Below are positions 2,100 through 12,076 of a DNA stretch of 12,076 nucleotides, piece after piece (positions within the stretch are counted from its first letter, which is position 1; each line of letters opens with the position of its first letter). A program made the position numbers and the translations under genes. Source of the stretch: an uncultured Clostridia bacterium (lineage in GTDB: Bacteria; Bacillota; Clostridia; Christensenellales; Aristaeellaceae); assembly GCA_937907055.1 (NCBI GenBank), contig CALCTW010000131.1, forward strand, positions 1 to 12,076. The letters are read 5' to 3'. The notes beneath the pieces were generated by a model. The model saw nothing but the letters and a program-made list of their open reading frames with translations. It did no database searches and had not been told where the DNA came from.

Positions 2100-3239
2100 A
2101 TGAAAAAAGGGATCGCGCTGCTGACGGCGGCGATGCTGCTGATGGGACTTTTGACCGGCTGCGCTTTCGCGGCGGGTAGCGGGCTGTACAGGATCGGGGA
2201 TAAAATAGAAGATTTTTCGGTGGAGCTGTGCGACGGAAGCACCTTCACGCTGAGCGAGGCCTGCGCGGAGCGTGATCTGGTGATGATCAATATCTGGGCT
2301 TCCTGGTGCGGCCCCTGCCGGAATGAATTCCCCTTTATGGAGAAGGCGTATGAACAGTATCGGGACAGGGTGGCGCTGGTGTGCCTCTCGATCGATCCCG
2401 GTGATACCAACACGGCGATCGCGGCGTTTATGGAGCGTCAGGGGCTGACCGCCCTTCCGATGGGCTATGACGCCGCGGGGGTGGGAAACCGGCTGGTAAA
2501 GCAGGGCTATCCCACCACGGTGCTGGTGGACAAGGACGGGACTTATGTGTATTACGAATGCGGCAGCCTGCCTTCCGTGGCAGCGTTCACGGAGATGTTT
2601 GACAGATTCCTGAACGGCGGCGCAGCGGCCTGCGCGCTGGACCTGAGCCCGGCGCTGAACGACAGACAATTGACCCTGACCCTGATCCCGGAGAGCGACG
2701 CGGCGGTGATCGACTGCAGCGATGTATTCAGTGCCGAAGATCTGCATTTTGAACACAAGTATGATCATCCGGATTACTGGAGCGTGATGCAATCCGATAT
2801 CCTGATCATGAATTATTCGGGCGCGGATCCTTATCCGGTGATGCGGACGATGCTGTATTATAACGGCACGGTGCCTGCCGGCGTGAACGCGGTCAGCTTT
2901 ATATTGGGCGGCAGGACGTTCAGACTGACGGGACTTGAGCTTCATAAACAGATGGGCATGGATCGGGACCGCGCGTATGAAGCCATGCTGATCCTCTACG
3001 GACCCGACACGATGGCATTCGCGGATGCCGTGATCGCGTACGCGGAGGAAGCGGCGACGAACGGAGAACAGAACACGCTGCAGGCGACGATGGTGCTGCA
3101 CGGAACAGAGGATCTGACGGTGACGCTGAATGCCGAACCGCTGCTGGACCTGTATCACGTGGCGGCCGGCTTCAAGGCGATCGGCGGCCCCGATTACGCG
3201 GGGTATGTGGGGGCAGGAACACCTGCCGCGGAACAGTAA
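2100..3239 (+). CDS. Lipoprotein: N-terminal TlpA/ResA-like thioredoxin (thiol-disulfide oxidoreductase) fused to an unnamed C-terminal FEHKY...LHGTEDL domain (paralog 1)
   Basis: Signal peptide with canonical lipobox LLTGC (Cys21). Thioredoxin active site WASWCGPC (WCGPC encoded at nt 2304-2318), plus the YPTTVLVDKDG pattern typical of the TlpA/AhpC-TSA fold. Residues from about 175 to 379 are homologous to the next two paralogs. RBS GGGAGG lies 8 nt upstream. Confidence 0.85.
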   Translation: MKKGIALLTAAMLLMGLLTGCAFAAGSGLYRIGDKIEDFSVELCDGSTFTLSEACAERDLVMINIWASWCGPCRNEFPFMEKAYEQYRDRVALVCLSIDPGDTNTAIAAFMERQGLTALPMGYDAAGVGNRLVKQGYPTTVLVDKDGTYVYYECGSLPSVAAFTEMFDRFLNGGAAACALDLSPALNDRQLTLTLIPESDAAVIDCSDVFSAEDLHFEHKYDHPDYWSVMQSDILIMNYSGADPYPVMRTMLYYNGTVPAGVNAVSFILGGRTFRLTGLELHKQMGMDRDRAYEAMLILYGPDTMAFADAVIAYAEEAATNGEQNTLQATMVLHGTEDLTVTLNAEPLLDLYHVAAGFKAIGGPDYAGYVGAGTPAAEQ

Positions 3240-3260: not shown

Positions 3261-3932
3261 TTGAAAAAGACGATTGGCGTGATGCTCGCGGCGGCGCTGC
3301 TTTTTGCTGCCTGTACGGCGCTGGCCGGTACGCTGGACCTGACACCGGTGAAGGAAAGCGAATCCCTTGTGATGCAGGTGGATGAAAAACAGAATATCGC
3401 CCTCATCACCTGCGATAAGGCGCTGAGCGTGGCTGACCGGCATTTTGAACACAAGTATGAGCATCCGAAACGGTGGAGTTTTATCGCTTCGGATATCATC
3501 ATCGGGGATTATTACGGCGCGGAGCCTTATCCTGTGATGCAGACCTGGATCTACTATGAGGGGACCCGGGCGATCAACGCGTACGCCGCGACCTTCCGGA
3601 TCAACGGGAAGGAATATACGGTGACCGGGATCGGAAATGAGGCGCGGCGAACCGGCCAGGAAGGCGATGTGAGCGAGGCGCTGGGCATCATCTACGGACC
3701 GGAAACGCAGGAGCTGATGGTGGCGCTGCATGATTATGAGGGAGAACTGCTCTCCGCCGGAAACTACAGCGGCGGAGTGACCGTGGTGCTGCACGGGACG
3801 GAGGACCTGGAGATCCGGATGAACGCGAAGGCGCTGATGGATTTTTACATCATCGGCAATGTGTTTTCGGAGATCAACGGGTTTGATTATTTCGGCCTGA
3901 CCGGCGGCGGGACCCCGGTGACGGCGCGGTGA
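3261..3932 (+). CDS. Secreted or lipoprotein of unknown function, FEHKYEHP...LHGTEDLE domain (paralog 2)
   Basis: TTG start 9 nt after GGGAGG (3246-3251). Signal peptide MKKTIGVMLAAALLFAACTALAG, with either a weak lipobox (FAAC) or a type I cleavage site (ALA-G). Blocks HFEHKYEHP (3441-3467) and LHGTEDLEI (3789-...) are shared with paralogs 1 and 3. Confidence 0.8.
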   Translation: MKKTIGVMLAAALLFAACTALAGTLDLTPVKESESLVMQVDEKQNIALITCDKALSVADRHFEHKYEHPKRWSFIASDIIIGDYYGAEPYPVMQTWIYYEGTRAINAYAATFRINGKEYTVTGIGNEARRTGQEGDVSEALGIIYGPETQELMVALHDYEGELLSAGNYSGGVTVVLHGTEDLEIRMNAKALMDFYIIGNVFSEINGFDYFGLTGGGTPVTAR

Positions 3933-3962
3933 AGGAAAATAATCAAAATATGGAAAAAATAG

Positions 3963-3991
3963 TTGACAAAGGCAAATAATGTATATATAAT
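3963..3991 (+). promoter_or_regulatory. Perfect consensus sigma-A promoter (TTGACA-17-TATAAT)
   Basis: TTGACA at 3963-3968, an exact 17-nt spacer, then TATAAT at 3986-3991, all within an AT-rich intergenic segment. It would give a 5' UTR of roughly 118 nt for the 4116 gene. Confidence 0.7.
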
Positions 3992-4115
3992 ATAGGCAAT
4001 CACTAATACTCTTAAGATAAAGAAAGTCGATACCTTGTAAAGGTGGAACTATGCATGTGGCACCGTTGAGCAACGATGCCAGACAATAATCGATGATAAA
4101 GAAAGGAATAGAAAA

Positions 4116-4724
4116 ATGAAAAAACATTTATCACGATCTTTTGCTCTACTCTTTTGTTTTGTCCTTGCGCTGAATATTTATTCACCGGCATTGGCGGAGA
4201 TCCCGGACGCTACTTTCCGGGAAATGATCCGGTATTGGATGGGAATCGAGATCCCGGAGGAGATTCCCTGTGTTGAAACACATATCATGGATGAGAATTT
4301 TGTGAGAACAGGTGAGATCAAATATTATTACGAACTGCCGGATGAAAAAACCGGAGAAAGTCATTTTCTTATGATCGTGCCCCGTGATAGTTATCTCTCT
4401 TTTTCTCATCCGGTGCCGGCAGATGAAGAAACGAGCCCGATTGTTGATGAAGAAACAGGCAGAGCACTGGTTTTGCAGATTTGTGAGCGTTATCATCTCT
4501 TTGGAAATGACGGGTCGCTCTCCTATGAGGAATTGCTGGAACAGCGAAATGCTGTGATGTATCCATATCCCATCATCGAACCGACGAAACGCCTTTGGCG
4601 ATGCGTCATGGATGCAGATGCAGAGGGATACGGCAGTGCAGATTTGATGTTCGATATTCAGGATATGAAAGTTGTATATGTGTTTCTTCGATATGAAAAG
4701 TTTGAAATCATATTGGAAAATTGA
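4116..4724 (+). CDS. Secreted hypothetical protein (Sec signal peptide), lower-GC cassette gene
   Basis: 202 aa. MKKHLSRSFALLFCFVLALNIYSPALA-E is a type I signal peptide. RBS AAAGGA lies about 9 nt upstream. I recognise no family. Codon usage and GC content are visibly different from the flanking genes. Confidence 0.7.
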   Translation: MKKHLSRSFALLFCFVLALNIYSPALAEIPDATFREMIRYWMGIEIPEEIPCVETHIMDENFVRTGEIKYYYELPDEKTGESHFLMIVPRDSYLSFSHPVPADEETSPIVDEETGRALVLQICERYHLFGNDGSLSYEELLEQRNAVMYPYPIIEPTKRLWRCVMDADAEGYGSADLMFDIQDMKVVYVFLRYEKFEIILEN

Positions 4725-4740
4725 TTGACCCAAAATGCGA

Positions 4741-4776
4741 AAGCGGAGAACGGCATGGCCGTGACTCCGCTTTTTC
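4741..4776 (+). terminator. Rho-independent terminator of the low-GC cassette
   Basis: GCGGAG (4743-4748) pairs with CTCCGC (4765-4770). An inner CGGC/GCCG stem closes on an ATG loop. TTTTT follows at 4771-4775. Confidence 0.8.
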
Positions 4777-4845
4777 GTTGCGGGGATTACTTGTAAAACC
4801 TGATCGAAAAGCCCGTGCCGCCTGAAGGGACAAGGCGCGCAAGGC

Positions 4846-4874
4846 TTGACAAAGAAAGGGAATCGCGGTATATT
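4846..4874 (+). promoter_or_regulatory. Sigma-A promoter for paralog 3
   Basis: TTGACA (4846-4851), a 17-nt spacer, then TATATT (4869-4874), about 30 nt upstream of the ATG at 4904. Confidence 0.65.
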
Positions 4875-4903
4875 CTATGCATCAAAAAGACGGAGGGTTT
4901 CAG

Positions 4904-5584
4904 ATGAAAAAGTTTTTTGCTTTGATGATGGCATTGGTGCTGATGCTGAGCATCTGCCCGGCATTCGCGGCGGGACTGGATATGTCCTATGTGGATAAGC
5001 ATGCGGATGTGTATTCTGTGTATATTCCGGAGGATGAACCGACCAAGGCGTTTATCGATACGTCCAACGGCTTTGGTGTGGATGAGCTGGCCTTTGAGCA
5101 TAAGTATGAGCATCCCAATCGCTACAGCTACATTTCCACCGATATCATCGTGTTTGATTACGGTACCGATGACGCGGAAGCTTATCTGCGCACCTGGATC
5201 TGCTATGAGGGCACTGAGCCGATCTACGCTACCTCCTGCACCTTTGTGGTGGACGGCGTGAAGTATACGCTGAGCGATCTTTCCGATCCCGATGATATGG
5301 GCGTGGATGACGGCGGCGTGTATCAGGATATGTGCATCCTGTATGACACGAAGAACATGGATGTGCTCTCCGCGCTGTACAGCTTTGTGCAGACCCGGAT
5401 CGAACAGGAAGACTATGACAGCATCGAGATCCCTGTGATCCTGCATGGTACGGAGGATCTGGAGATCGTGATGGGCGGCATGTCCCTGCTGGACCTGTGC
5501 TATATGCTGGATGCCTTTGATTTCATGGGCGCGCTGGCGATGATGGCGCCGCTGAGCAATGCCTCGCCGCTGACCATCGAATGA
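4904..5584 (+). CDS. Secreted or lipoprotein of unknown function, FEHKYEHP...LHGTEDLE domain (paralog 3)
   Basis: I prefer the start at 4904 (MKKFFALMMALVLMLSICPAFAAG), which is 6 nt after GGAGGG. The ORF-track start at 4877 falls on the predicted transcription start region and has no RBS. Blocks AFEHKYEHP (5090-5116) and LHGTEDLEI (5441-...) are shared with paralogs 1 and 2. Confidence 0.8.
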   Translation: MKKFFALMMALVLMLSICPAFAAGLDMSYVDKHADVYSVYIPEDEPTKAFIDTSNGFGVDELAFEHKYEHPNRYSYISTDIIVFDYGTDDAEAYLRTWICYEGTEPIYATSCTFVVDGVKYTLSDLSDPDDMGVDDGGVYQDMCILYDTKNMDVLSALYSFVQTRIEQEDYDSIEIPVILHGTEDLEIVMGGMSLLDLCYMLDAFDFMGALAMMAPLSNASPLTIE

Positions 5585-5656: not shown

Positions 5657-5797
5657 CGGCAGAAGTAAAAACTGCCGCGTGGTGATGCGATATGGATGAA
5701 GACTATATCGGCGGAAGTAAAAAAGAAACTGCCGCGTGAAAACAAGATATTGAGTGAGCCAACTCTGGCGGATGTAAAAAAAGCGGATGTGAAAAAG
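5657..5797 (+). repeat. Four copies of GCRGAWGTRAAAAA in the M42 leader: two inside hairpins plus one exact tandem 15-mer pair
   Basis: Copy cores lie at 5659-5671, 5711-5724, 5768-5782 and 5783-5797. The first two sit in CGGCAG/CTGCCG-type hairpins (5657-5677 and 5709-5734), and both are followed by the shared string ACTGCCGCGTG. The last two are adjacent 15-mers, GCGGATGTAAAAAAA and GCGGATGTGAAAAAG (13/15 identical). Confidence 0.7.
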
Positions 5798-5809
5798 AGG
5801 AGGATGGAG

Positions 5810-6892
5810 ATGCATACACAGGAAGAACGGCTGCAAATGGTGCAGGAACTGAGCGATGCCTTTGGCCCTTCGGGATTTGAAGACGATGTGCTGCTGGTGG
5901 CGCGGAAGTGGGCCGAGGGGATCGGAAGGATCGAAGAGGATTCGATGCGCAATCTGTATATCCACCGTAAGGAGAATACCGGGAATAAGCCCGTGCTGAT
6001 GCTGGACGCGCACAGCGATGAAGTGGGCTTTATGGTGCATTCGATCCATAATAACGGCACACTGCGCTTTGTGACGCTGGGCGGCTGGAACCGGATGGCG
6101 CTGGCGAGCGCCGATGTGCTGGTGCGTAACGCGAAGGGCGAATACCTGCCCGGCATCATCGCGGCCAAGCCCGTGCACTTCCAGACCGCGGCGGAAAAGA
6201 ACGGCGGTGTGCCGGAGATCTCTTCCTTTGTGATCGATATCGGCGCGACCTCGAAGGAGGAGGCCGTGAATGATTTTCATATCCGTATTGGCGAGCCGGT
6301 GGTGCCGGCGACCCGTTTCCGTGCGGATGAAAAGCGCGGGCTGCTGTTCGGCAAGGGCTTTGACTGCCGTATCGGCGTGGCGGCGCTGCTGGAAACGCTG
6401 GACCGTCTGCAGGGCGTGGAGCTGCCCTGCGATGTGATCGGCGTGCTGTCCTCGCAGGAGGAAGTGGGCGAGCGAGGCTGCAAGGTATCGGTGAAGCACG
6501 CGAAGCCGGATATCGCTTACGTGTTCGAGGGCTGTCCCGCGGATGATACCTTTACCGAGCCCTACGCCATCCAGACCGCGCTGCGCAAGGGCCCCATGCT
6601 GCGCTTTATGGATGTGTCGGTCATCATCAACCCGCGCTATCAGCGCTTTGTGCTGGATCTGGCGGAGCAAAAGGGCATTCCGGCGCAGGCCAGCGTGCGC
6701 GAGGGCGGCGGCAATGACGCGGCGATCATCCAGAGCGCGCTGGAGGGCACGCCTGCCGTGGTGGCCGGGGTGCCGGTGCGCTATATCCACTCCATGAACT
6801 GCATTACCACACTGGAGGACCTGGAATACAGCGTGCGGCTGGCGGTGGAGACCGCGAAGGCGCTCACGCCGGATGTGATCGGGCGCTTCTGA
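5810..6892 (+). CDS. M42-family metallo-aminopeptidase (glutamyl aminopeptidase / FrvX / YsdC-like)
   Basis: Motifs LDAHSDEVGFMVHSI, GGWN, QEEVGERG and the C-terminal pattern match the M42 peptidase family. I prefer the start at ATG 5810, 6 nt after AGGAGG (5799-5803); ATG 5804 is also possible. The ORF-track start at 5696 adds a lysine-rich extension with no good RBS. Confidence 0.85.
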   Translation: MHTQEERLQMVQELSDAFGPSGFEDDVLLVARKWAEGIGRIEEDSMRNLYIHRKENTGNKPVLMLDAHSDEVGFMVHSIHNNGTLRFVTLGGWNRMALASADVLVRNAKGEYLPGIIAAKPVHFQTAAEKNGGVPEISSFVIDIGATSKEEAVNDFHIRIGEPVVPATRFRADEKRGLLFGKGFDCRIGVAALLETLDRLQGVELPCDVIGVLSSQEEVGERGCKVSVKHAKPDIAYVFEGCPADDTFTEPYAIQTALRKGPMLRFMDVSVIINPRYQRFVLDLAEQKGIPAQASVREGGGNDAAIIQSALEGTPAVVAGVPVRYIHSMNCITTLEDLEYSVRLAVETAKALTPDVIGRF

Positions 6893-6982: not shown

Positions 6983-7188
6983 CGTTAAAAACACACGAAG
7001 GGACGGCGACGGAGGGGAGAATTAATAAACGAAAATGAAAAGAGATTAAATGATGGTTGTACGAAAGAGAAGGGTTACTGAGATTATATTCCGCGGGGAA
7101 ATGGTCTATCATAAGCACTGTCAGGAGGAACAAGGAACCGACTGACAGAGAAAAAAAGAGAACGCCCAAAGGGCAGGAGGAAATGAAA

Positions 7189-7428
7189 ATGAAGACTCAG
7201 ATGAACGAAATGGAACTGAACATGGTGAACGGCGGTATCGAGATGGAAGATGTGATGGACCTTGCGAACCAGGTGGCCGTGGTGGTAGACAAAGCGATCA
7301 AGGGTGTGAACAGCGCGATGCTGCCGGATCACGTGATGATCAACGCGTGCGCCGCCGGTGAGGAAGCCCCCGGAACATTCCTGCCGGGTCTGGTGATCGA
7401 TGGCGGAAGGATGCGCGCCGGCCGCTGA
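7189..7428 (+). CDS. 79-aa peptide precursor with an N-terminal double-glycine (GG) leader; predicted 63-aa acidic core
   Basis: ATG 7189 lies 8 nt after GGAGG (7176-7180). The leader is MKTQMNEMELNMVNGG, with predicted cleavage after nt 7236. It has Val at -4, Leu at -7, Glu at -8 and Met at -12, matching the class II bacteriocin/peptide-pheromone GG-leader consensus. The longer ORF-track start at 7057 has no RBS. Confidence 0.6.
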   Translation: MKTQMNEMELNMVNGGIEMEDVMDLANQVAVVVDKAIKGVNSAMLPDHVMINACAAGEEAPGTFLPGLVIDGGRMRAGR

Positions 7429-7740: not shown

Positions 7741-8967
7741 TCAGTTGTCCTTGCGCTTGCGCAGGAGGTATTCGTCCAGATCGTTCTTGACCTTGTCCGG
7801 CATGGCGCGGCCGACCGGGAAGACCTTCGCGGAGGCCAGACAGGCGGTGAAGGCGGCGGCAAAATCGATATCACGGGCAAGCTGATCCGCCGAGAGGACA
7901 GCGATGGTGTCGTAGCGGTTGTGGATGGTGGACTGGCTGGGCGGCGTGACACGGGCAAAGGAGAGCGCGGGAACACCGGCATCAGCGAAGGGGGTGGAAT
8001 CGGAGGAATAGACGCCGGTGCGCACCTTGATGCCGAAGCCCTCGAGCGCGGCGAAGTATTCGATGAAGTGATTGAGGCGTTCTTCGGCGGAAACACAGGC
8101 GATGAAGCGGCCCATGATGGTGCCGACCATATCGAAGTTGATATTGAGCATGAAACGGGAAAGCTCCGCCTCATGATCGCGCACATAGGCCTTGGAGCCG
8201 AGCAGGCCGCGCTCCTCACTGCCGCAGAAGACGAAGCGCAGACCGTAGGTGAGCTTCCTGTCCTTCAGGGCTTCCATGATGCCGAGGAGGGCGACACAGC
8301 CGGTCATGTTATCATAGCTGCCGACGGAGAGCGGAACGGTATCATAGTGCGCGGTAAGGACGATGTATTCATCCTTCTCGCCGGGGATCTCGGCCACGAC
8401 ATTGTGGGATTCGCCGTCCCATTCTTCATTGGCAATCTCGATGCGGACAGTCTTGGGCGCCATGGCGACCAGTTTGGCCGCGGTGCGGGCATGAACATTG
8501 ACGCCCGGCAGCTTTTTGCCGCAGGAGACCACGGGACGAAGCTCCTTGATGTCGATATCATTATCGGGGAGGAAGACGGAGCCGTTGTAGGTGATGAAGC
8601 CAACCGCGCCCTTTTCGTAAAGATCCTGGAAGAGGAAGTGGGTCATGCCGGTATCGACCATGACGATCTTGCCCTTGACATCCGCCATGGAGACGGGATC
8701 GGTGGAGGGGAGATAATAGAACGGGGCTTCGACCGCGGCATCCCCGCAGAGGGCATAGCCGGTGCAGACGACCTCCTCACCGTCAGCGGTGCAGGAAACT
8801 TTGGTGACGCGGCCCATGGTGACGGGGAAGGCTTCCAGATGAGCGGACACGCCCATTTCGGCGCAGCGATCCAGCAGATAGTTGGCGGCGCGCAGTTCTT
8901 CTTCGGTGCCGGAGGTGTGGACATAGGCGGTGTCATTCAGGACACGCATGATCTGTTCTTTTTTCAT
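7741..8967 (-). CDS. M28-family metallo-aminopeptidase with an inserted PA (protease-associated) domain
   Basis: 408 aa. Motifs LTAHYDTV, DNMTGCVALL, CGSEERGLLGS, NFDM and HNRYD fit the M28 zinc ligands and catalytic residues. The segment KGKIVMVD...GAVGFI is PA-domain-like. There is no signal peptide. RBS AAAGGA lies upstream of the ATG at 8967. Confidence 0.85.
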   Translation of the reverse strand: MKKEQIMRVLNDTAYVHTSGTEEELRAANYLLDRCAEMGVSAHLEAFPVTMGRVTKVSCTADGEEVVCTGYALCGDAAVEAPFYYLPSTDPVSMADVKGKIVMVDTGMTHFLFQDLYEKGAVGFITYNGSVFLPDNDIDIKELRPVVSCGKKLPGVNVHARTAAKLVAMAPKTVRIEIANEEWDGESHNVVAEIPGEKDEYIVLTAHYDTVPLSVGSYDNMTGCVALLGIMEALKDRKLTYGLRFVFCGSEERGLLGSKAYVRDHEAELSRFMLNINFDMVGTIMGRFIACVSAEERLNHFIEYFAALEGFGIKVRTGVYSSDSTPFADAGVPALSFARVTPPSQSTIHNRYDTIAVLSADQLARDIDFAAAFTACLASAKVFPVGRAMPDKVKNDLDEYLLRKRKDN

Positions 8968-9000
8968 GGATAAAAGATCCTTTCAATAAATGCTGAGGAT

Positions 9001-9029
9001 ATTATAGTACGAAACTTCCGTAAAAACAA
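9001..9029 (-). promoter_or_regulatory. Sigma-A promoter for the M28 gene (minus strand)
   Basis: Read on the minus strand: TTGTTT (complement of 9024-9029), a 17-nt spacer, then TATAAT (complement of 9001-9006). Confidence 0.6.
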
Positions 9030-9190
9030 CCCGTGCGGACACGGACGCGGCCGGATCAGGGCACTTTCCGGCCAAGATCCCGCCGCCCGGCGCGGACGGA
9101 GGAGAAAAACGACGGAGAACGGAGGAACGGGGCAGGAAACACGCGGCGAAAACGGTATAAAGAGGCAAAATGTTACGAAATGATTAAATC

Positions 9191-9279
9191 AGGTCACTTG
9201 AGGTTCTATAAAGGTTCGAAAAGGTTATAAAGAGGATCGAAAAGGTTCGTTCAGGTTCGTAAATATCCATTGCAGGTCA
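9191..9279 (+). repeat. Eight helically phased AGGTYM hexamers (consensus AAAGGTTCG) upstream of and overlapping the ridA promoter
   Basis: Hexamer starts: AGGTCA 9191, AGGTTC 9201, AGGTTC 9212, AGGTTA 9222, AGGATC 9233, AGGTTC 9243, AGGTTC 9253, AGGTCA 9274. Spacings are 10, 11, 10, 11, 10, 10 and 21 nt, about 10.4 nt per step, with one position skipped. A-tracts between the hexamers are phased the same way. Confidence 0.75.
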
Positions 9280-9298
9280 CATGCAAATGTGTTATGGT
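9270..9298 (+). promoter_or_regulatory. Putative sigma-A promoter for ridA (extended -10)
   Basis: TTGCAG (9270-9275), a 17-nt spacer, then TGt-TATGGT (TATGGT at 9293-9298). An imperfect inverted repeat, CATTGCA...TGCAAATG, spans the spacer. Confidence 0.45.
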
Positions 9299-9326
9299 GT
9301 ACGCGTAAAGAAACACAGGGAGGACA

Positions 9327-9704
9327 ATGACGATGAACAAGATCATGACAGACAAAGCACCCGCGGCGATCGGCCCCTACAGCCAGGGATATGAGGCAGG
9401 CGGCCTGGTGATCACGAGCGGACAGATCCCCGTGGATCCCGCGACCGGAATGATGCCGGAGGGCATTGAGGCCCAGGCGGAACAGAGCTGCAAGAATGTG
9501 CAGGCGATCCTGGCGGCTGCCGGACTGACCATGGACAGCGTGATCAAGACGACCTGCTTCCTGGCGGATATCAGCGATTTTGCCGCGTTCAACGCGGTGT
9601 ACGCGAAGTATTTCACTTCCTGCCCCGCGCGCAGCTGCGTGGCGGTGAAGGATATCCCCAAGGGCGCGAAGTGCGAGATCGAAGCCATCGCGGTGAAGGG
9701 ATAA
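9327..9704 (+). CDS. ridA: RidA-family (YjgF/YER057c/UK114) reactive enamine/imine deaminase
   Basis: TDKAPAAIGPYSQG...GQIP...IKTTCFL.D...F..N.VY..YF....PARS.V.V..LP.GA..EIE is the classic RidA signature. An alternative start at ATG 9333 has better spacing (9 nt) from GGGAGG (9318-9323). Confidence 0.9.
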   Translation: MTMNKIMTDKAPAAIGPYSQGYEAGGLVITSGQIPVDPATGMMPEGIEAQAEQSCKNVQAILAAAGLTMDSVIKTTCFLADISDFAAFNAVYAKYFTSCPARSCVAVKDIPKGAKCEIEAIAVKG

Positions 9705-9767
9705 AATTTTTCAGAGAGACAGCGCGCCGCGCTGCTGAAAAGACACGGGGCGGCGCGGAAAACAAAG

Positions 9768-9800
9768 AAAAGGAAGCAGGGAAAGCCGGCTTCCTTTTTT
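9768..9800 (+). terminator. Rho-independent terminator after ridA
   Basis: GGAAGC (9772-9777) pairs with GCTTCC (9789-9794), with an extra GG/CC pair around a GAAAG loop. An A-run lies upstream and TTTTTT follows at 9795-9800. Confidence 0.7.
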
Positions 9801-11097
9801 GATGCGGGAAAGGGATGAGAAGAGCGGAGAGATGAGCGAAGCAAAGGGGAAGAAGCGCGGCGCGGCAGGGTATGCCGAGCAGGCCGGGCTGAAGACGGGC
9901 GAGCTGCTGCAGCTGGCAAAGGCGCTGGGCTATACAAGGCTGACCGCGGTGCATGAAAAATGGATGCTGCAGATGGTGTACGGGCAGCGGGACATGACGC
10001 TGCAGGCGCACCGCGGCAGCTATAAGACGACATGCCTCTGCGTGGCGCTGGCGGTGATGATGACGGAGATGGGCGGAAAGAACATTCTGTTCATGCGGAA
10101 GACGGACGGCGATGTGGCCGAGGTGCTGCGGCAGGTGAGCGGGATATTGAAGCATGAGGCCATGCGGGCGTGGTGTGAAAGGCGGACAGGGAAGGAACTG
10201 AAGGTGATCCGCGCGACGACCTGTGAGATCTCGACCGGGATGTATACGGCCCCGCGCGGCGCGCCGCAGCTGCTGGGCATGGGAACGGGCGGCAGCCTGA
10301 CCGGCAAGCACGCGGATGTGATCGTGACGGATGACATCGTGAACCTGAAGGACCGCCTGAGCCGGGCGGAAAGAGAGCATACGAAAAGCATATACCGCGA
10401 GCTGCAGAATATCCGCAACCGGGGCGGAAGGATTATCAATACGGGAACACCGTGGCACCGGGACGACTGCTTTTCGCTGATGCCGAAGGCGCTGAAGTAT
10501 GACTACAGGAAAACGAAGCTGATCAGCCGGCGAGAGGCGGCGGAGCTGCGCAGGGCGATGACACCGGGGCTGTTTGCCGCGAACTATGAGCTGCGACATA
10601 TCGCGGAGGAGAACGCGCTGTTCGGGGAGATGCCGGCGATGTTTGACGATGAGGAGCTGCTGCGGGACGGCATCGCGCATATCGACGCGGCCTACGGCGG
10701 CGGAGACTGCACCGCGCTGACCTGCATGAGCCGGATCGGGGATGAGATCTATGTGTACGGACGGCTGTGGCATTGTCATGTGGACGCGGCGCTGAACGCG
10801 ATATTGAATGAATGCGACCGGATGCTGTGCCAGCCGGTGTGGTGCGAAACAAACGCGGATAAGGGTTTCCTGGCGCGGGAGATTCGGGAAAAGGGATACG
10901 CGGCGCGGATGTATCATGAGAGTCAGAACAAGTATTACAAGATATCCACCTTCCTGCGGAAGTGGTGGGGGAATATAAGATTCTATGAGGAGACGGACGC
11001 GGAGTATCTGGAGCAGATCGCGGAGTATTCGGAGGAGGCGGAAGCGGATGACGCGCCGGACAGCTGCGCGACGGCGCTGCGCATCCTGACAAGGTGA
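9799..11097 (+). CDS. terL: Phage terminase large subunit (TerL)-like protein: ATPase plus RNase H-like nuclease domains; start codon uncertain
   Basis: Walker A-like HRGSYKTT (10012-10032). Walker B DVIVTDD (10315-10335). Coupling motif TGTPWHRDD (10441-10467). Nuclease acidic residues in HIDAAYGGGD (from 10681), CETNADKG (Glu at 10846) and ADDAPDSCATAL (11047-11061). Candidate starts are TTG 9799, ATG 9802 and ATG 9832; none has a well-spaced SD. Confidence 0.8.
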   Translation: MMRERDEKSGEMSEAKGKKRGAAGYAEQAGLKTGELLQLAKALGYTRLTAVHEKWMLQMVYGQRDMTLQAHRGSYKTTCLCVALAVMMTEMGGKNILFMRKTDGDVAEVLRQVSGILKHEAMRAWCERRTGKELKVIRATTCEISTGMYTAPRGAPQLLGMGTGGSLTGKHADVIVTDDIVNLKDRLSRAEREHTKSIYRELQNIRNRGGRIINTGTPWHRDDCFSLMPKALKYDYRKTKLISRREAAELRRAMTPGLFAANYELRHIAEENALFGEMPAMFDDEELLRDGIAHIDAAYGGGDCTALTCMSRIGDEIYVYGRLWHCHVDAALNAILNECDRMLCQPVWCETNADKGFLAREIREKGYAARMYHESQNKYYKISTFLRKWWGNIRFYEETDAEYLEQIAEYSEEAEADDAPDSCATALRILTR

Positions 11098-11176
11098 GGG
11101 GAGCGGCAAAAGGGTGTTTTGAAAGTGTTTTTTCAGAGGCGGAAGAGGCGTTGGGATAGAAAAGGCGGGCGGAATA

Positions 11177-11185
11177 TGCTAAAAT
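11177..11185 (+). promoter_or_regulatory. Possible extended -10 element (TGcTAAAAT) for the HD gene
   Basis: TGCTAAAAT lies about 48 nt upstream of ATG 11233. There is no convincing -35 at 17 nt. Confidence 0.3.
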
Positions 11186-11232
11186 ATGCCGTGGATGAAC
11201 CGAAACACAGAAAATAAGCGAGGAAAAAAGAT

Positions 11233-11799
11233 ATGGAGTGCATTGCACGGGAAAAAGCCTGGGAACTGCTGAAAAAATACAATCAGGATCCTTTTCATCT
11301 GCGTCACGCGCTGACGGTGGAGGCCGTGATGGGCTGGTACGCCGAAGCGCTGGGCTATGAAGCGGATAAGGACTTCTGGAGCACGGTGGGCCTGCTGCAT
11401 GATGTGGATTTTGAAAACTGGCCGGAGCAGCACTGCGTGAAGGCACCGGAGCTGCTGCAGGAGATCGGCGCATCGGATGAGCTGATCCATGCGGTCTGCT
11501 CCCACGGATACGGCCTCTGCTGCGATGTTGAGCCGGTGCATCCGATGGAAAAGATCCTTTTCACGGTGGATGAGCTGACAGGCCTGATTGGCGCCGCGGC
11601 GCTGATGCGCCCGTCAAAGAGCACGAAGGATATGGAAGTTTCCAGCCTGAAAAAGAAGTTTAAAGACAAAAAGTTTGCGGCAGGCTGTTCAAGAGAAGTA
11701 ATTGAGAGAGGCGCAAACCAGCTCGGTTGGGAATTGGACAAGCTTCTTACAATGACATTGTCAGCAATGCAGGCTGTCGAAGACGAGATTCAAGTATAA
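11233..11799 (+). CDS. HD-domain metal-dependent phosphohydrolase (COG2316-like small HD protein)
   Basis: 188 aa. The pattern H(LRH)ALTVEAVM ... GLLHDVDF ... HAVCSHGYG is the H...HD...H pattern of small Firmicute HD-superfamily hydrolases. RBS GAGGAAAAAAGAT lies before the ATG. Confidence 0.85.
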   Translation: MECIAREKAWELLKKYNQDPFHLRHALTVEAVMGWYAEALGYEADKDFWSTVGLLHDVDFENWPEQHCVKAPELLQEIGASDELIHAVCSHGYGLCCDVEPVHPMEKILFTVDELTGLIGAAALMRPSKSTKDMEVSSLKKKFKDKKFAAGCSREVIERGANQLGWELDKLLTMTLSAMQAVEDEIQV

Positions 11800-11803
11800 G
11801 CTC

Positions 11804-12076
11804 GTGAAAGAATCTTATTACAACATTTTCAATCGGTGCTTTCCTGATATGAAGCTATCCTATAAACGCTTCGTTGATTTGCTGCACACCGATAAATGCG
11901 TCTATTTTGAAAGCTTTGATTGTGAAGAACTTTCTGCTTTTGCTATTGTCGAAGACTTTGCTATCCGCCTGATATGCGTTACTCCCTCAAAACAAGGGCA
12001 GGGTATAGGTACAAAGCTTGTATCTGATGTTGAAGAATATGCCAGAAATAAAGGCTATGACAAGCTATTAACTGGT
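11804..12076 (+). CDS. GNAT-family N-acetyltransferase, 5' fragment (runs off the window)
   Basis: Frame 2 is open from 11756 to the window end. It is absent from the ORF track because it has no stop. Translation: VKESYYNIFNRCFPDMKLSYKRFVDLLHTDKCVYFESFDCEELSAFAIVEDFAIRLICVTPSKQGQGIGTKLVSDVEEYARNKGYDKLLTG. It contains the acetyl-CoA motif A (QGQGIG). The start is either GTG 11804 or ATG 11849; neither has a clear RBS. Confidence 0.65.
   Translation, partial: MKESYYNIFNRCFPDMKLSYKRFVDLLHTDKCVYFESFDCEELSAFAIVEDFAIRLICVTPSKQGQGIGTKLVSDVEEYARNKGYDKLLTG

Follow-up and report, generated by a model that had tools for sequence, protein, structure and literature searches.

The window (the whole stretch of DNA that was analyzed) is the entire contig C131 (12,078 b) of metagenome-assembled genome (MAG) G000, a genome from a genus of uncultured gut or rumen Clostridia, of 2.55 Mb in 140 contigs, that is 89% complete, and it carries a gene for the large subunit of a phage terminase (TerL; positions 9799 to 11097, plus strand). 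The locus is read here, at a probability of roughly 0.55 and from gene content and sequence comparison, as the terL gene of a vertically inherited and fragmented gene transfer agent (GTA)-like system without a small terminase subunit (TerS), of the two-locus, podovirus-type kind described in Faecalibacterium prausnitzii (FpGTA). The terL gene and the head and tail-tip genes that accompany it elsewhere in the genome probably constitute a conserved, selected, and domesticated set, and the further step that this set makes DNA-carrying particles is given slightly less than an even chance. The set has at least two loci in this species, with terL and head genes at locus A and tail-tip and lysin genes at locus B.

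The 432-amino-acid (aa) open reading frame (ORF) at 9799 to 11097 matched the large terminase family phrog_38 over residues 47 to 431 (E value, 2.7e-60), as well as three further TerL PHROGs, in agreement with an earlier interpretation of the ORF from its letters alone (the sequence-only reading). Pfam returned a single subthreshold match, to the T7-terminase RNaseH-like domain, and a PDB sequence search with TerL gave chance-level matches only. All of the ATPase, coupling, and nuclease motifs listed earlier were present when the window TerL was aligned with 11 relatives, four of which came from complete phage genomes. Residues invariant in all 12 sequences included H71-R72-x-S74-Y75-K76-T78 (Walker A), T177-D178-D179 (Walker B), the coupling motif G216-T-P-W-H220, and the nuclease residues D296/D303, E350/N352/D354, and D417-D418-x-P-D-S422. 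The Walker A sequence RGSYKTT and Walker B sequence TDD had been singled out as deviations; they are typical of the family, being invariant in 12/12 members, complete-phage TerLs included. Similarly, the segment described as helix-turn-helix-like (residues ~31 to 56) is the conserved N terminus of the TerL family (G44, L48, H52, and W55). By these features, the ORF encodes a genuine, intact large terminase.

The description of terL as an orphan gene among housekeeping genes reflects an artifact of the contig end, as the apparent isolation exists because the contig stops at 12,078. The two contigs of the species that reach past the intervening cargo (L009 and L010) have portal, scaffold, and capsid genes ~3 kb downstream of terL; the TerL on contigs of this type differs from the window TerL at two residues. 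The order at locus A is RidA, TerL, an HD-domain protein (199 aa), peptide deformylase (PDF; 137 aa), RibD_C, and metallo-beta-lactamase (MBL), followed by portal, a 469-aa protein (p469), scaffold, a P22-type major capsid protein (MCP), and proteins of 140 aa (p140) and 79 aa (p79). The portal is of the SPP1 type (phrog_64, 2e-31), and the major head protein matched phrog_283 (3e-78) and P22_CoatProtein (7e-39). Beyond the 79-aa gene, the long contigs continue with LrgB, LrgA, and MatE on the opposite strand, and host genes flank the head module on both sides in a 52.8-kb contig of the same species. In MAG G000, the portal-to-79-aa block opens contig C2, and the PDF-RibD_C-MBL genes are located on contig C93. 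An intact prophage would have its lysogeny, replication, packaging, head, tail, and lysis modules side by side, and no such arrangement was found. RidA followed by a 431-aa TerL and then by HD-PDF-RibD_C-MBL occurred in 10/10 other assemblies of the species, which extends the ridA-terL-HD order beyond the window, and no empty site was seen for locus A among these assemblies.

Ratios of nonsynonymous to synonymous substitution rates (dN/dS) were calculated between MAG G000 and strain L009, for which dS was similar throughout (0.04 to 0.17). The ratio for TerL was 0.029 (20 synonymous and 2 nonsynonymous changes), which indicates purifying selection and answers the check on selection that had been proposed for this gene. 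Values for the structural genes ranged from 0.02 to 0.13 (portal, 0.038; p469, 0.07; scaffold, 0.13; capsid, 0.019; p140, 0.11), with host flanks at 0.11 (M28 peptidase) and 0.016 (LrgB). Purifying selection of this kind on structural genes is among the properties by which GTAs are recognized. TerL was intact in 9/9 assemblies, which carried seven haplotypes, and its polymorphic bases numbered 50 in synonymous-only codons versus 11 in seven amino-acid-changing codons. The head genes of locus A are as constrained as the neighboring host genes and have the base composition of the host. For terL, the earlier observation that composition matches the surroundings was borne out (GC content, 0.61; GC content at third codon positions, 0.81, versus 0.76 to 0.82 in neighbors). 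GC content was discarded as a marker, as it fails to tell resident from phage copies.

Locus B is located on G000 contig C132 and encodes a Dit-like baseplate protein, a Tal-like protein, and a peptidoglycan hydrolase with NlpC/P60 and PG_binding domains. The C terminus of the Dit-like protein matched phrog_33 (3e-9) and annotated phage tail proteins, and the Tal-like protein matched phrog_1067/7142. The block of MBL (minus strand), Dit, Tal, and lysin genes is syntenic in three genomes of the genus (G000, G002, and G003); in the fourth (G001), the head genes run directly into genes for a 629-aa protein with a C-terminal Dit domain and a 269-aa Tal-like protein. The full-length Dit-like protein was limited to these four genomes, and other genera matched the C-terminal domain only. 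Within G000:C132:36856-39997 (L073 6857-9997), in-frame TAG codons were found at codon 525 of the Dit-like gene and at L073 position 9053 in the Tal-like gene, and homology continues through both. An in-frame TAG was also found in a portal gene from another genus (G005; L018:5836-5838), exactly at a Glu position of the portal consensus, and the yhfC gene of the window ends in TAG with TGA directly after it (1061 to 1066).

TerL, portal, MCP, and the full-length Dit-like protein were present in all four genomes of the genus, with a different linkage in each species. The search for unlinked portal and capsid genes that had been suggested from the window returned homologues in all three other genomes (portal, 64 to 68% identity; MCP, 60 to 66%), located off the TerL contig in G001 and G003. 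When set beside host orthologues of the genus, identities were 65 to 69% for portal, 60 to 64% for MCP, and 48 to 61% for TerL, and the host orthologues were about equally diverged (Sua5, 67 to 71%; M28, 50 to 63%). The order in G002 is a leucine-rich repeat (LRR) gene, TerL, a 557-aa protein, portal, two small genes, and a p469-like protein, followed by host genes, and its capsid gene is on a contig other than that of its portal. In G001, a lone TerL lies between MatE and a GH120 gene, and a frameshift in a C5 run interrupts the capsid gene. The Sua5-MatE-TerL arrangement was also found in a sister species, collinear over 10.6 kb and with a 91% identical TerL, and in a further lineage whose TerL is 61% identical. 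The lone TerL of this site is intact and retains all catalytic residues; between the two sister species, its dN/dS was 0.145 at a dS of 0.33, with flanking genes at 0.05 to 0.16. In a maximum-likelihood (ML) tree, the four genus TerLs and the two syntenic lone TerLs fell on one side of a branch, with the 52 other family members on the other (ultrafast bootstrap, 98; SH-like approximate likelihood ratio test, 90; 96% of bootstrap trees). The vertical inheritance and lineage-wide conservation expected of a GTA are thus reflected in 4/4 genomes, a 98/90 clade, and 10/10 assemblies.

In G003, contig C92 (L070) contains a 2.5-kb direct repeat (8120 to 10619 and 14469 to 16968; 99.88% identical; period, 6,349 b) that places a copy of the capsid and p140 genes to each side of the portal gene. 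This repeat could represent a tandem duplication or an assembly effect.

Several phage modules were sought without success. MAG G000 yielded no match to the tape-measure, Prophage_tail, or Mu_F families, no tblastn homologue of the tail proteins of related phages, no TerS (tblastn with nine TerS-like proteins of related elements), and no second TerL or portal. No TerS-like ORF is located upstream of terL; none of the genus TerLs with upstream DNA examined has a TerS, and family members just outside the clade do. Profile searches of the window proteins found no TerS, portal, capsid, or integrase, consistent with the sequence-only reading. The loci read showed neither an integrase nor a module for replication or regulation, with integrase and recombinase families not searched genome-wide, and no holin was identified among these genes. 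PADLOC returned no match for TerL, HD, MBL, p469, p140, p79, or the lone TerL.

Of 8,000 candidates scored for the TerL family, 7,955 were significant, which makes the family very large. In the bacterial family of the host, 61 genomes were searched and 8 carried a TerL homologue, those of the four species of the genus among them. In four ordinary large phages, a TerS-like gene overlaps the TerL start and portal follows directly. Outside the genus, G005 and G008 carry TerS, TerL, and portal; the G005 cassette occupies ~9 kb between host genes and continues to capsid, a Prophage_tail protein, and lysin. A scan of species-representative genomes with a portal profile identified 72 related loci, and TerL adjoins portal in all but a few of them. 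The three cassettes read closely (L136:6392-14835, L128:1279-10890, and L018:3227-12329) are ~8.5 to 9 kb long with host genes on both sides. The cassette order is a possible TerS, TerL, portal, scaffold, capsid, and p140, with the NlpC/P60 lysin at the end, and the hosts are Christensenellales and Clostridia MAGs (L094-L165). Many cassette contigs break 1.3 to 2.2 kb upstream of TerL. The portal pattern scan found no cultured Faecalibacterium, only MAGs named "Faecalibacterium sp." and CAG:74. A 367-aa gene beside a related cassette was considered as an integrase and rejected, being a GSP26/PNPOx-like host protein. These TerL-portal cassettes are candidates for the GTA-like packagers seen in Christensenellaceae (PMC12946183).

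The context of terL in the window departs from this family norm, with RidA and a terminator-like hairpin upstream and portal present only after at least 3 kb of cargo. The ridA-terL spacer (9723 to 9800, plus strand) folds into two stable hairpins (-46.4 kcal/mol; z score, -4.4; 0/200 shuffles as stable). The second hairpin (~9766 to 9800) has a GC stem between an A-run and a U6 run and ends 1 base before ATG 9802, and in this respect resembles a putative intrinsic terminator. A simple terminator scan did not list it, probably on account of the loop-size limit. The TerL start is more likely at ATG 9802 (431 aa, as called in other assemblies) or ATG 9832 (421 aa) than at TTG 9799. The first ~25 residues are the sole unshared extension in the 12-member alignment, and three of the seven amino acid polymorphisms of TerL in the species fall within them.

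The gap between terL and portal acts as a strain-variable cargo site. The block common to other strains spans 7750 to 11636 (blastn against L009 and L011), and the window diverges from all of them after 11636. Cargo specific to G000 consists of the end of one HD gene (HD1), GNAT, SIR2, and a second HD gene (HD2), where the others have one 199-aa hybrid HD gene; the GNAT gene at 11804 to 12076 was missing from the same position in 10/10 other assemblies. The two HD paralogues, found only in G000, are 78% identical over ~170 b, with GNAT and SIR2 between them (region covered: window 11637 to 12076; G000:C93 [L015] 3699 to 4948). The presence of SIR2 and HD next to terL hints at defense genes. 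The PDF encoded between terL and portal (L009:5581-5994; G000:C93:3275-3688, minus strand) is 137 aa long and matched the phage PDF family phrog_2890 (E value, 1.7e-33), by which it may be a phage-type auxiliary gene rather than the housekeeping def. Genes for BspA-type LRR surface proteins with 69-b repeats adjoin TerL or the head module in three genomes (G000:C93:1-1500, L017:11093-11917, and L050:3024-4508). This proximity may be a coincidence, such genes being abundant here.

The genes that adjoin terL in the window were supported by Pfam matches, which upholds the flanks named earlier: RidA (Endoribonuclease L-PSP; 9327 to 9704, plus strand; PF01042; E value, 1.3e-39) and the HD-domain protein HD1 (11233 to 11799, plus strand; PF01966; E value, 4.7e-4). 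HD1 is followed by the GNAT acetyltransferase, which is cut at the contig end (11804 to 12076, plus strand; PF00583; E value, 5.4e-8). RidA bounds the phage-derived DNA on the left, in the place that TerS has in related elements. Its sequence also matched the C-terminal RidA-like domain of the PADLOC model PD-T4-2_B (E value, 1.2e-32); this probably reflects merely a common domain, and no partner gene was seen. The M28 peptidase on the host flank (7741 to 8967, minus strand; PF04389; E value, 4.2e-34) is preceded by ORFs encoding YhfC (224 to 1063), a GNAT protein (1527 to 2045), an AhpC/thioredoxin-like lipoprotein (2100 to 3239), three signal-peptide proteins, two of them paralogous, without phage matches (3261 to 5584), an M42 peptidase (5696 to 6892), and a small ORF (7057 to 7428). 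The ORFs at 3261 to 5584 were considered as tail genes and ruled out as paralogous signal-peptide proteins with zero phage matches. A domain with the pattern FEHKYEHP...YPVM...VLHGTEDLE is common to three secreted or lipoprotein-like paralogues (C-terminal half of 2100 to 3239, 3261 to 3932, and 4877 to 5584). These paralogues have no Pfam or PHROG match, one is fused to the AhpC/thioredoxin domain, and their number and size vary among strains. The long antisense ORFs in the window are by-products of high GC content.

In the proposed GTA-like system, the ancestor of the genus would have acquired the genes or already had them, after which the system would have been broken up and its parts kept by selection. 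The system probably began as a compact TerS-TerL-portal-scaffold-capsid-adaptor-Dit-Tal-lysin cassette of the sort still seen in related bacteria. Scaffold and capsid proteins would assemble a small procapsid on the portal, and TerL would dock on the portal, its ATPase pumping DNA in and its RNaseH-like nuclease cutting it. Packaging by TerL would be nonspecific and of the headful type, and the cargo would be essentially random host DNA, because without TerS there would be no site specificity. The 140- and 79-aa proteins may close the head, Dit and Tal may form a short podovirus-like tail tip, and the NlpC/P60 enzyme may act in cell wall penetration or release. The hairpin and U-tract at the terL start suggest that expression is normally off and needs read-through or antitermination. 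A bolder version, considered rather unlikely, is that the genus runs a scattered GTA whose TerS was lost and whose TerL is kept even where it is unlinked, with TerL starting packaging alone or having gained a capsid-independent role, and with the TAG-bearing genes read with the apparently altered code of the host. In-frame TAGs at conserved positions would then mark the particle genes as fully host genes.

Of the origins proposed for terL in the sequence-only reading, decay of a prophage down to this one gene is contradicted by the intact head module, the tail-tip and lysin block, purifying selection, and retention in 4/4 species. A broader form, in which the whole set is an ordinary decaying remnant with no present function and owes its intact frames and low dN/dS to recent phage ancestry, is considered the least probable of the alternatives weighed here. 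It would account for the failure to find TerS, lysogeny, replication, and long-tail genes in G000 (integrase families not searched genome-wide), for the foreign genes inserted between terL and portal, and for such defects as the G001 capsid frameshift, the lack of a capsid beside the G002 portal, and the in-frame TAGs in Dit and Tal. However, purifying selection was measured on changes that postdate the strain split, at a dS equal to that of host genes, and for the lone TerL it was also detected between two sister species at a dS of 0.33. The set is kept across a genus whose housekeeping proteins are only 50 to 71% identical. According to surveys, decaying prophages lose their terminase and portal genes preferentially (PMC7744054), and the retention of both here argues against passive decay.

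The proposal of a dispersed GTA- or satellite-like system held in its GTA-like part, through the scattered and selected head and tail genes in 4/4 species, and its satellite part is disfavored. In the latter, a helper-dependent element resembling the phage-inducible chromosomal islands that form capsids (cf-PICIs) would supply the heads itself and depend on a helper phage for tails and induction signals. Head and packaging genes without a long tail, variable cargo inside the element, and the many related compact ~9-kb TerL-to-lysin cassettes in MAGs of related bacteria are compatible with this explanation. It is nevertheless improbable, only a little less so than decay, since reading of the loci turned up no integrase and no replication or regulatory module (the sole candidate being the 367-aa GSP26/PNPOx-like host protein), the same site is occupied in 10/10 assemblies with no empty site, synonymous divergence is the same as in the host genes alongside, and the set includes its own Dit, Tal, and lysin genes. 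A transferable island could also not tolerate genes dispersed over several loci, differently in each species. A slightly stronger but still unlikely alternative is that TerL was domesticated for a capsid-independent ATPase-nuclease function, such as blocking the packaging of related phages or cutting phage DNA, with the head genes incidental. A TerL that acts alone, one of the origins named in the sequence-only reading, may still apply to the sister lineage with a lone TerL. The Sua5-MatE-TerL site kept in three lineages with an intact gene (dN/dS, 0.145), the frameshifted capsid gene in G001, which is the lone-TerL genome, and the SIR2 and HD genes in the strain-variable cargo beside terL are in line with such a function, and TerL is the one component unlinked or split from the rest in every species examined. 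Against this, PADLOC defense models match neither TerL nor its neighbors, and the G001 frameshift lies in a MAG homopolymer and may be an assembly error. A function of TerL alone also leaves unexplained the retention of portal, capsid, scaffold, and Dit-like genes in 4/4 species, and in this species they are as constrained as TerL.

The interpretation as a fragmented GTA-like system has points against it as well. If the G001 capsid frameshift is real, TerL is selected in that genome without a working capsid, and in G000 the intactness of the Dit-like and Tal-like genes depends on TAG being a sense codon. RcGTA and FpGTA each have a TerS-like gene, and none was found here, which leaves a gap in the model at the step where packaging starts. 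As G000 is 89% complete, its tail, TerS, and helper-prophage genes count as "not found" rather than "absent." The topology of TerL within the genus depended on the method, differing between distance quartets and the outgroup-rooted ML tree, which leaves some room for a genus-specific phage lineage that deposited repeated remnants. The distance quartets, in which TerL, portal, MCP, and Sua5 mutually agree, were dropped as evidence of codivergence in view of their conflict with that tree. Flanking synteny or an empty site in the sister species was sought via M28, LrgB, RidA, and MatE, and gene order was not conserved. Furthermore, the likeness to FpGTA is one of gene layout, as compared with the published description.

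GTA-like packaging was recently reported to be common in gut Clostridia, with the genes known only for Faecalibacterium, and the locus adds a specific set of candidate genes from an uncultured lineage outside Faecalibacterium. Its state is unusual, in that the particle genes are selected yet fragmented differently in each species and lack a recognizable TerS. It may serve as a natural test, showing which components of a packaging machine cannot be dispensed with and how a terminase operates, or what other function it has, when TerS is lacking. A lesson for annotation is that phage genes that look like "orphans" at the end of a MAG contig need to be checked against longer assemblies.

Among known systems, cf-PICIs are similar in having their own TerL, portal, capsid, and connector proteins and no tail (10.1101/2025.02.11.637232). 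They differ as mobile islands with integrase, regulators, replication genes, TerS, and helper tails; here, an integrase and the other mobility genes were not seen at the loci read, the locus is fixed, and the dispersed genes include those for Dit, Tal, and lysin. The concept of domesticated defective prophages was reportedly put forward by Bobay, Touchon, and Rocha in 2014. In domesticated prophages and in PBSX of Bacillus subtilis, which is a GTA-like example (PMC12946183), structural genes are likewise kept in the host chromosome by purifying selection, but PBSX and the enterobacterial cases form contiguous prophage-like regions. Terminase and portal, the genes preferentially lost in surveys of remnants (PMC7744054), are here the retained core.

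The alphaproteobacterial GTAs of Rhodobacter capsulatus (RcGTA) and Caulobacter (CcGTA) resemble the present system in that their head, tail, and packaging genes are domesticated, pass down vertically, and evolve under purifying selection, and in having additional chromosomal loci (multilocus; PMC5026251). Nonspecific packaging and host-controlled expression would be further shared features, which are inferred in the present case. The terminator-like hairpin before terL invites comparison with the antitermination control of the Caulobacter GTA (PMC11150451). RcGTA and CcGTA differ in belonging to another phylum and in being siphovirus-like, with a tape measure and tail tube, a TerS-like g1, and a contiguous main cluster; their capsid is of the HK97 type with a protease, whereas a P22-type coat protein and scaffold are found here.

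The closest comparison is with FpGTA of F. prausnitzii (Nat Commun 2026; PMC12946183), in which locus I encodes a TerS-like protein, TerL, portal, scaffold, and capsid, and locus II, 125 kb away, encodes baseplate, fiber, and lysis genes. FpGTA particles are podovirus-like, measure 40 nm, and contain ~8.5 to 9 kb of random host DNA, and GTA-like packaging was also seen in Christensenellaceae MAGs, in which the genes are unnamed (PMC12946183). Both systems have a gut Clostridia host, genus-wide conservation, and a division into two loci, one for head and packaging and one for baseplate or tail tip and lysin. Both also look podovirus-like, having no long tail genes, and lysogeny or replication genes were seen in neither, for the present system at the loci read. 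Locus I of FpGTA, however, is an uninterrupted 10.5-kb operon headed by a TerS-like gene, whereas here no TerS was found, terL is separated from portal by at least 3 kb of cargo or stands alone in the sister species, and linkage varies in every species. Read in this manner, the system is a further variant, fragmented and TerS-less, of this recently recognized kind of GTA.

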